From positions 13,895 through 77,894 of the forward strand of contig JAFWDK010000008.1 in the NCBI GenBank assembly GCA_017513085.1: 64,000 nucleotides of DNA, in the 5' to 3' direction. Position 1 is the stretch's first letter; every line of letters starts with the position of its first letter. Below, piece by piece: positions 31,923 to 32,513 of the stretch. This DNA comes from Clostridiales bacterium. Its GTDB lineage: Bacteria > Bacillota > Clostridia > Saccharofermentanales > Saccharofermentanaceae. Made by a program: the position numbers and the translations under genes. The notes beneath the pieces were generated by a model, which saw nothing but the letters and a program-made list of their open reading frames with translations, was not told where the DNA came from and did no database searches.

Positions 31923-32513
31923 AGCTCCAGCGAACCAATCTCACTTCCAATTCCTACGGCCACCCTTTATTATCTGCGAACCTTCAAGATCCTGCTCAAC
32001 CTGTCTTCGCGGAATTACTCACCACATGAAGCTGTGCCTTTCCAACCGACCCGAACCCGAAATGTTGTCGTCTCCGAAACCACCCTTTCCATTACCTCTG
32101 CTGCATCTGCCTGAACTGATTGCCCCATGCTACCAATCCGGTCTCCGATCCAGTTTTTGCAACTTACTCAGTTATGGTCCGTCTCCTACCATCTCTTCGT
32201 AATCTCGACTCCCCGCTTGCTGATTCCCATCATCATCGGTTCATCTAAATCAAGGTTCCAACCTGACCCGCGACTTGTGTCCGCCCTCGCGTACCGTCAA
32301 TCGCTGTCCGCTCTCCACTGCTTGCTACTATGGCTCAAACGGTTCCGGTTTTTGCTGTTCCTATTCGATCTCACCGGATCGCCTTCAAAAACGCATCCAC
32401 CATCGTTTCCTGACCACTCTCTGGTCTTTCTGTTTTTTTCAACCTCGCCTTGTGTATTCATCAGTGGCGGTTCTCCGTTTGGGAAATGGTGTTAACTCGT
32501 ATTCCCTGGAGCT
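31923..32513 (-). ncRNA. Candidate large (~590 nt) structured non-coding RNA
   Basis: No minus-strand ORF of 60 aa or more; promoter just upstream; terminator downstream; 5' AGCTCCAG pairs with 3' CTGGAGCT, with further nested helices. Confidence 0.7.

Follow-up and report, generated by a model that had tools for sequence, protein, structure and literature searches.

The window analysed here is a stretch of 64,000 nucleotides (nt) from a Clostridiales bacterium (assembly GCA_017513085.1, contig JAFWDK010000008.1). An operon on its plus strand encodes a protein of 320 amino acids (aa), referred to as p320, and the hypoxanthine phosphoribosyltransferase Hpt. On the minus strand, positions 32513-31907 are a stand-alone gene for a large non-coding RNA (ncRNA) that converges on hpt. 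A preliminary description, made from the sequence, had proposed a stand-alone large ncRNA at this place, and the proposal is borne out by a transcript that is expressed, has no match in Rfam 15 and possesses a structure backed by covariation. The features of the locus are collected in Table 1.

Table 1. Features of the ncRNA gene and of the adjoining operon, in window coordinates.
Feature	Position	Strand	Remarks
ncRNA transcript	31907-32513	-	5' end inferred from promoter spacing; 3' end approximate
-35 hexamer TTGACA	32542-32547	-	16 nt from the -10 element
Extended -10 element (TGn + TATACT)	32520-32528	-	Columns invariant in the 24-sequence genus alignment
P1, 5' strand (AGCUCCAG)	32506-32513	-	Pairs with 31930-31923; compensation at pairs 2, 3, 5 and 8 (101 members)
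P1, 3' strand (CUGGAGCU)	31923-31930	-	Pairs with 32506-32513
G of the G·G mismatch (32505) and P1b 5' strand GAAU	32501-32505	-	G·G in 101/101 members
P1b 3' strand GUUC and G of the G·G mismatch (31931)	31931-31935	-	101-member comparison
Rest of rod, 5' strand	32469-32500	-	Pairs with 31964-31936 (helices 1-3)
Rest of rod, 3' strand, including AAAGGG and junction-closing GGU	31936-31964	-	Columns 81-618 GC 21 / AU 3
P5 domain, ~150 nt here	32315-32467	-	Helices 4-13; 98-228 GC 16 / AU 8; 111-212 UA 12 / CG 11
P6, 5' strand GCGGAC	32306-32311	-	Pairs with GUUCGC 31981-31976
P6, 3' strand GUUCGC	31976-31981	-	Pairs with GCGGAC 32311-32306
P7 hairpin	32270-32304	-	Best-conserved stretch of the ncRNA, nearly invariant in the genus
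P8 domain, size-variable	31988-32268	-	Helices 17-29, many compensatory changes
U-rich tail directly 3' of P1	31907-31922	-	RNA contigs stop there, short of the downstream hairpin
Hairpin with U/A runs on both strands, bidirectional terminator	31867-31893	both	Between the RNA gene and hpt
hpt, hypoxanthine phosphoribosyltransferase	31318-31848	+	PF00156 and TIGR01203, 164.6 bits; convergent with the RNA
p320, 320-aa candidate partner	30343-31305	+	PF13189 kinase-like and PD-(D/E)xK-fold C-terminal domain

The promoter given in the preliminary description, TTGACA and TATACT at a spacing of 16 nt with a TGn extension and a start point near 32513, was found as described and matches the σ70-type consensus at 11 of 12 positions in addition to the TG extension. 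Promoter-like sites are not enriched in the region (5 compared to 4.5±2.2 in shuffles). The complementary ends were also confirmed, with AGCUCCAG marking the 5' start of the ncRNA at 32513 and its complement CUGGAGCU ending at 31923. A terminator had been expected about 25 nt past the rod that these ends close; the hairpin is present, starts approximately 30 nt after the rod (31893-31867) and lies beyond the ends of contigs assembled from RNA libraries. This hairpin gives weak, terminator-type look-alikes in Rfam. The ncRNA probably terminates in the U-rich tail at 31907-31922, and the contigs, which cannot prove ends, hint that the first helix (P1) followed by the U-run is the actual terminator.

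The stretch is contained in 20 of the 24 public sequencing runs listed. Seven runs are metatranscriptomes from three rumen and gut studies, and in these 58-85% of the sampled words were present. Four of the RNA runs were mapped as contigs onto positions 30800-33800 of the window. The contigs recovered over the ncRNA measure 591 nt (31912-32502, two differences), 593 nt (31907-32499, no differences), 520 nt (31913-32432) and 519 nt (31921-32432), and their depth is 8.5-228 over the ncRNA compared to 0-4.7 over the flanking genes. Since the depth on the ncRNA is far above that of the flanks, DNA contamination cannot account for the signal. Contigs of this kind offer hints to the exact ends, the strand and the expression level but fix none of the three; the strand is fixed by the promoter and by conserved G-U pairs (GU in 24/24 sequences at two positions). 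In relatives, the RNA contigs pile up on the P7 hairpin at a depth of up to 832. The ncRNA is a real, discrete and abundant transcript of approximately 600 nt.

The earlier statement that no open reading frame (ORF) of 60 aa or more is present applies to the RNA strand, where the longest has 54 aa, but not to the opposite strand, where ORFs of 122 and 81 aa occur, neither of them conserved. In alignment A1, the sense ORFs of 54 aa and 37 aa are intact in three and two of 24 relatives, respectively, and the antisense 122-aa ORF in one. Thus, with ORFs that remain intact in no more than one to three of the 24 relatives, a protein-coding gene or a small ORF is ruled out. The interior is rich in G and A as originally described, with the RNA being 64% purine.

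The ncRNA is structured, with support from covariation. A minimum free energy (MFE) fold of 32520-31915 closes the two ends, as does the comparative structure, so the pairing of the ends noted from the sequence is seen by both approaches; the z-score of the whole molecule is a modest -1.95 and 1 of 20 shuffles folds equally well. RNAalifold, applied to 24 sequences, predicted 98 pairs and found compensatory changes at 27. A ribosum-based consensus from the 24-sequence genus alignment contains 153 pairs in 29 helices, with 93.1% of cells paired compared to 88.6±0.2 in shuffles. Both sides have changed in 57 of the 153 pairs compared to 30.1±3.1 in shuffles, none of which reached 57 in 500 attempts, and controls with a slid register gave 14-27 such pairs and 26-47% pairing. 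These formal covariation figures apply to the genus alignment, and the support across families for P4, P6 and P7 was judged by eye. A blind column-pair covariation scan of a 52-sequence, 990-column MAFFT alignment produced noise only, and the quality of a MAFFT alignment built from 10 short forms let RNAalifold resolve no more than P1 and P7.

The rod is formed by 32513-32469 with 31964-31923, approximately 45 nt per side, and comprises 33 pairs of which 31 are canonical in the window sequence. It opens into a three-way junction from which P5 and P6 emerge, the latter leading to P7 and P8. The preliminary description had extended the rod to about 65 nt per end, whereas the comparative structure branches after about 45 nt. 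Of the outer helices that it had listed, GAAU/GUUC, ACGG/CCGU and part of CCAUUUCC/GGAAUUGG lie in the comparative rod; the inner helices CCGCC/GGUGG, CUG/CAG, UGAAU/GUUCG and CAAGG/UCUUG are absent from the structure. CCAC pairs locally with GUGG (32467-32460 with 32322-32315), and the GUUCGC strand pairs with GCGGAC, with covariation, as P6. Every cell of P6 is paired in the 24 sequences with one compensatory position, and further compensated variants were recognized by eye in other genera. The GACCA/UGGUC hairpin is real (32426-32412) and covaries (AU 19 / GC 5).

The domains differ in how they vary. P5 is just a hairpin of 15-20 nt in members of 246-264 nt, and the helix of P7 carries compensatory changes in short forms. 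Within P8, about 190 nt are missing in three members of the genus and about 43 nt in two others (alignment A1, columns 307-506), and as the rest of the RNA stays aligned without it, the deleted part is dispensable. A module of the form GGA(U/A)GGAAAGG - hairpin - GAGUA(A/G)nUCC recurs one to three times per RNA (window 32043-32010; several medium-sized members); with GAA opposite AGUA, it presumably resembles an internal loop of the loop E or sarcin-ricin type.

By BLAST, the region is present throughout the genus, with 70-91% identity in each of 23 further genomes, while a search with the window RNA reached only 65 of 300 genomes of the order. The exact 14-mer at the 5' end occurs in 139 of these 300 genomes compared to about 10 for a reversed control; by family, the counts are 76/141 (f1), 21/39 (f2), 30/54 (f3) and 11/65 (f4). 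In genus g20, the interior of one member was found in 68 of 100 genomes. A gapped pattern of 22 bases selected 47 stretches among 185,579 species genomes, 40 of which carry a consensus promoter and, 233-598 nt downstream, the matching 3' end; six appear to be random and one is truncated at the edge of its locus. The pattern-positive genomes belong to Saccharofermentans, Mageeibacillus and unclassified Clostridia assembled from rumen, digester and sediment metagenomes. The pattern also occurs in 28 metagenome contigs and, as an exact pattern that covers one subfamily, in none of 2.9 million viral contigs. Full members were contained in all 20 regions fetched from BLAST matches; among 20 regions fetched from 14-mer matches, 13 gave 15 clean members and six gave none. 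As the censuses employed BLAST and exact or fuzzy motifs, the counts are lower bounds.

Several candidates were left out of the comparison: L122 with a mis-called 3' end, L108 and L110 without a promoter, and L107, L111, L115 and L121 with the 5' motif and no 3' motif within 760 nt. For want of a -10 box, 84 of 185 fuzzy matches were also omitted, and the 12 that were inspected are reverse-strand mirror matches. L196 and some fuzzy matches in L191, L195 and L197 look spurious. With a -10 box required, 101 distinct members remained, whose lengths span 243-624 nt (median 427), and further forms reach down to 165 nt. A -35 element with two mismatches or fewer is found in 92 of the 101 members, and at least six U within 12 nt after P1 in 88. 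In MFE folds, 13 of 13 short members showed the same topology; one short family member has a folding z-score of -6.5.

Across the family, the closing helix (8 base pairs, a G·G mismatch and GAAU/GUUC) is nearly invariant in sequence, yet it is proven by compensation. Among the 101 members, pair 2 is GC in 95, GU in 5 and AU in 1; pair 3 is CG in 98, UA in 2 and UG in 1; pair 5 is CG in 99, UA in 1 and UG in 1; and pair 8 is GC in 86, AU in 12 and GU in 3. Position 9 is the universal G·G mismatch. Of pairs 10-12, pair 12 is A-U in 100 members and the other two are invariant, and pair 13 is UG in 97, UA in 2 and CG in 2. Since the searches selected termini with no more than two substitutions per end, this invariance is partly an effect of selection; in members reached through the interior or the protein gene, the ends can drift, and then do so with compensation. 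The interiors differ among subfamilies, and members from f2, f4 and other classes are without the junction sequences of the window. The large size of the ncRNA is a lineage-specific elaboration of a family that reaches down to about 165 nt, with P5 and P8 expanded in this genus to give a molecule of about 600 nt.

The ncRNA is present in one copy in its own genome and in one to three copies in others. Tandem pairs of members, 380-700 nt apart and each with its own promoter, were observed at L101 (G276), L113 (G027), L114 (G039), L117 (G030) and L163 (G262). The tandem copies of G027 and G039 have different interiors and lengths of 313-316 nt and 405-410 nt, which suggests duplication followed by divergence. 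A miniature inverted-repeat element was rejected as an identity on account of the few copies, of the G·G mismatch and U-G wobble that are kept as features of RNA, and of a promoter in 92-101 of 101 members.

The 4227 models of Rfam 15 matched only four tRNAs in the window at the gathering threshold, and the 1.2-kb region produced six chance-level matches at E ≤ 10, none to a large RNA. No match was obtained for one short relative, for 20 diverse loci at E ≤ 0.1 or for 11 out-of-class loci at E ≤ 0.01. ROOL, OLE, GOLLD, 6S RNA, RNase P RNA and transfer-messenger RNA (tmRNA), which had been named beforehand for comparison, are among the families without a match, as are HEARO, raiA, SRP RNA and Y RNA. 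Elsewhere in the genome lie the signal recognition particle (SRP) RNA (91.8 bits), RNase P RNA of type A (269.6 bits), tmRNA (165.8 bits) and a candidate 6S RNA (contig C14, 44 bits compared to a cut-off of 46.4). A divergent form of any of these four RNAs was ruled out since each is encoded elsewhere, and a 6S RNA, of which a genome has one, would furthermore be expected to form a rod of about 190 nt with a central bubble, whereas the ncRNA is branched. Like these RNAs, the ncRNA has a constitutive promoter, is abundant and vertically inherited, and joins a conserved core to lineage-specific expansions; unlike them, it is confined to part of one phylum.

Other comparisons concern large or ornate RNAs of similar habit. 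OLE RNA (RF01071) is likewise an abundant, ornate ncRNA of about 600 nt from anaerobic Bacillota that forms a ribonucleoprotein with proteins encoded nearby. In contrast, the family described here ranges from 165 to 624 nt and has no sequence or structure match to OLE, its context is not ispA-OLE-oapA-dxs, and its candidate partner is a kinase-like, nuclease-fold protein instead of OapA/B/C. The OLE model found no match in the whole genome, nor in the control genomes. ROOL and GOLLD are also large, ornate RNAs, and ROOL is reported to have been first seen in rumen data, with a mean length of 581 nt and an unknown function (PMC5737381). Unlike ROOL and GOLLD, for which a position near tRNAs and/or in prophages and an occurrence in phage genomes would be expected, the ncRNA is chromosomal and syntenic, flanked by hpt and an ABC-transporter locus; it is defined by its conserved closing helix and has no match in Rfam or in the viral contigs, within the one subfamily that the pattern covers. 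On the viral contigs, and within that same subfamily, a phage-borne RNA was rejected.

Clostridia also possess the raiA motif RNA (RF03072), another structured ncRNA that is abundant, stands alone, has a strong promoter and a strong terminator and is of unknown biochemistry. Its model matched neither the ncRNA nor the genome (nor the control genomes), a raiA example looks unrelated, and raiA was detected in 22 of the 151 Clostridia sampled, with none in the 6 genomes of this order. A replacement of raiA or OLE was rejected, as raiA is merely patchy in the class. In Y RNA, a stem of conserved sequence joins the two ends and docks Ro60 (Rsr), while the rest of the molecule varies. The stem sequence of the ncRNA differs, and the identity was rejected as there is no Y_RNA match in Rfam and no Ro60/TROVE gene (PF05731) was found in the genome. 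By analogy, the ncRNA behaves most like OLE with its dedicated proteins or Y RNA with its terminal docking stem, while belonging to neither.

A full-text literature search found nothing on the motifs of the ncRNA or on PF13189 with an RNA, although supplementary motif lists could still contain it, and the part of the main text available for a paper on 224 motifs has no cytidylate or hpt motif. On present evidence, the ncRNA constitutes a new class of RNA, and its candidate partner, p320, stands for a protein family that is new in this role.

The N-terminal part of p320 belongs to PF13189 ("cytidylate kinase-like"), and the C-terminal ~120 aa have a weak match to DUF790 only. The protein has 1044 homologues of about 310-330 aa, annotated with PF13189 only. 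In 32 aligned sequences, the position of the P-loop reads ISRQMGSLGDE without the Walker-A lysine, and the C-terminal block is almost invariant; a block reading SPDF...ELT contains a conserved Asp and Glu. Across classes, the C-terminal domain is 47-93% identical. The AlphaFold model of the N-terminal domain matches 3hdt and 3fdi, two structural-genomics entries of PF13189, and nucleoside monophosphate kinases. The model of the C-terminal domain (predicted local distance difference test, pLDDT = 78) has the order α-β-β-β-β-α-β-α. Its best Foldseek match is Bax1 (E = 0.014, probability 0.94-0.96), followed by R2 RLE, I-Bth0305I, Vsr, T7 endonuclease I, NucS and PA endonuclease, all of the best matches being PD-(D/E)xK nucleases.

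The p320-hpt operon, with overlapping or adjacent stop and start codons, was observed at 30343-31848 (+) of the window, at 1873-3374 of L181 and at 1932-3379 of L199, and distant lineages of the phylum retain the arrangement. In many Bacillota, hpt is preceded by tilS; a role of p320 as a replacement for TilS was ruled out since TilS is encoded elsewhere in the genome.

Within the order, convergent hpt lies directly past the 3' end of the RNA in 31 of 41 loci, and in 28 of the 41 the p320 gene is found within 3.5 kb, upstream of hpt, to give the series p320, hpt and convergent RNA. The 188-aa ORF divergent from the RNA promoter (window 32849-33415, +) is kept beside the RNA in 24 of the 41 loci. 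This ORF has an N-terminal hydrophobic helix and no Pfam match, and after it come genes for an ABC ATPase and an ABC-2 permease.

The C-terminal domain of p320 was found in 220 of the 300 genomes of the order, and in a class-wide sample in 5 of 6 genomes of the order and 1 of 144 from other orders. In this one genome (G408), a family member of 277 nt lies about 190 nt from the p320 gene and is divergent from it. Counted by hand with the 14-mer as the marker for the RNA, 126 of the 300 genomes have both RNA and protein, 13 have RNA only, 94 have protein only and 67 have neither; the protein is thus present in 126 of 139 RNA-positive genomes compared to 94 of 161 RNA-negative genomes. The distribution is patchy in genera g22 and g26, and there RNA and protein occur in exactly the same genomes. 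When five protein-positive genomes without the exact 14-mer were inspected (four from "protein only" genera of the order, and G408), three had a member with compensated ends beside the gene, and some "protein only" genomes are therefore false negatives for the RNA. Motif scans did not find the RNA near the p320 gene in G026 and G029.

Beyond the class, a phylum-wide sample gave the C-terminal domain in 36 of 400 other genomes, and 31 of these 36 loci were examined, with five left out. A family member stands beside the p320 gene in 15 of the 31: 10 of the first 11 loci have RNAs of 315-335 nt, divergent from the p320 gene, and 5 of the further 20 have RNAs of 165-324 nt beside it. In the out-of-class lineages, the p320 gene overlaps the start of an hpt-like ORF. 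Since two different arrangements are present across several classes, inherited gene order alone does not predict the linkage.

Two sister species of the genus, G014 (L022, 1405-2049) and G006 (L024, 1516-2160), depart from the usual form. In both, the 3' end of the RNA has been replaced and the RNA has a new hairpin terminator of its own, while the 5' strand, altered at two positions that are invariant elsewhere, forms a local hairpin instead. Neither hpt nor p320 lies beside the RNA, and the C-terminal domain of p320 was not found in either genome. The two members of the genus without p320 are the two with altered RNA ends.

Taken together, sequence comparisons favor, with moderate confidence, a ribonucleoprotein in which the ncRNA functions with p320. 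The ncRNA is transcribed from the near-consensus σ70 promoter, and its first and last ~45 nt pair as the rod. The almost invariant closing helix may serve as the docking site for p320 and, with the U-run, probably ends transcription and would protect both ends. The junction core with the expandable P5 and P8 would act as a scaffold, constituting the working or specificity part; the role of a scaffold proposed in the preliminary description is compatible with the evidence, though not demonstrated. We infer from gene linkage and co-occurrence that p320 binds the RNA, with the closing helix as the predicted site. It is a good deal more doubtful that the RNA and p320 constitute a housekeeping particle in which the closing helix docks the protein and the variable interior supplies substrate recognition or catalysis, the putative activity being that of an RNA-dependent nuclease or nucleotide-processing particle tied to purine salvage through the hpt operon; if so, its standing would be comparable to that of RNase P or the OLE particle.

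Several observations weigh against a partnership with p320. The link rests on gene neighborhood and co-occurrence among related, non-independent genomes, and hpt is linked equally tightly, so that the association may be with the operon or its function and not with the protein. Several genomes carry the RNA and p320 genes on separate contigs or at a distance of 13 kb. Motif scans found no RNA within 1.5-2.5 kb in 16 of the 31 out-of-class loci, and the protein was not detected in 13 genomes positive for the 14-mer of the RNA, among them G158 and G222, which are 100% and 99% complete. The promoter and interior of the RNA persist in G006 and G014 in the absence of the protein and the rod. One deletion that removed the 3' end of the RNA, hpt and p320 could explain the coincidence in these two genomes, and from their example the RNA may work without the protein. 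Furthermore, the fold matches of the C-terminal domain are weak, with none at E ≤ 0.001 (best 0.014) and a model pLDDT of 78, and the consensus structure was scored on the same alignment from which it was derived.

One alternative is a function of the RNA alone, either through architectural or oligomeric assembly like that of ROOL, GOLLD and OLE or as a ribozyme, with the neighborhood of p320 and hpt being a meaningless inherited synteny. Such a function would suit the conserved, promoter-driven RNA of G006 and G014, the genomes with RNA and no detectable protein, and the ornate, purine-rich character of a molecule that has conserved junction nucleotides, repeated internal loops of the GAA/AGUA type and no Rfam family. 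However, linkage that persists in two arrangements across several classes is not expected under simple synteny, co-occurrence holds genome by genome in patchy genera, and the sole universally conserved element is a short invariant helix, as is typical of sites that proteins recognize. A function of the RNA alone is considered unlikely.

Less probable again is a regulatory role, in which the RNA would control the p320-hpt operon or purine salvage as a ligand sensor or in trans or cis and would not be a stoichiometric partner of the protein. In its favor, the operon flanked by the RNA is always the same one, the stop codon of p320 overlaps the start of hpt in distant lineages, and a convergent or divergent placement would permit interplay of promoters or terminators. 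Against this, the transcript does not overlap the operon, its placement varies by lineage between upstream-divergent and downstream-convergent, and it is unlinked in some genomes. In addition, it would be unusual for a regulator dedicated to one operon to be 165-624 nt long, to be closed by a rod, to reach very high abundance and to have a constitutive promoter of the consensus type.

The adjacency of a nuclease-fold protein to a very abundant structured RNA, together with the tandem RNA copies of some genomes, also calls to mind a defense module or a pair like the type III toxin-antitoxin systems, in which the RNA would neutralize or license the protein. This is improbable given vertical inheritance, a protein that is 47-93% identical across classes and shares an operon with a housekeeping gene, the absence of matches to the 22-base pattern in the viral contigs, an RNA without a repeat-array structure, and a distribution that tracks taxonomy and not islands.

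A sponge for CsrA or another GGA-binding protein, in line with the protein sponge that the preliminary description had suggested, is scarcely credible and for CsrA is refuted: the ncRNA has 24 triplets and its relatives 5-32, but 22.4±3.2 are expected from dinucleotide shuffles (189 of 500 reach 24), so the richness is one of composition and not a motif signal, and CsrA (PF02599) was not found in the 99.4%-complete genome, while control genomes gave matches. A sponge of the CsrB/RsmZ type was rejected on the same two grounds.

With a ribonucleoprotein of the ncRNA and p320 as the favored interpretation, an orphan RNA and an orphan protein family become directly testable in function. Bacteria seldom yield a new class of ncRNA that is both large and abundant, and RNase P, OLE, ROOL, GOLLD and raiA each opened a field. 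The ncRNA ranks among the transcripts with better coverage in three metatranscriptome studies of rumen and gut, and it flags a gap in how Clostridia from gut and rumen are annotated with Rfam. Its diverse representatives number more than 100 and suffice for structure work, and the candidate partner is a concrete one, being an uncharacterized family of 1044 homologues annotated as "cytidylate kinase-like" only.

Elsewhere in the window, three of the four tRNA genes recognized with the Rfam tRNA model (62-71 bits) are clustered at 18466-18729 and the fourth is at 63393-63465 (-). A protein of 454 aa from the beta-lactamase family (PF00144) is encoded at 28311-29675 (-), with a start that resembles a signal or lipoprotein sequence and a long linker of low complexity rich in Thr, Glu and Ser.

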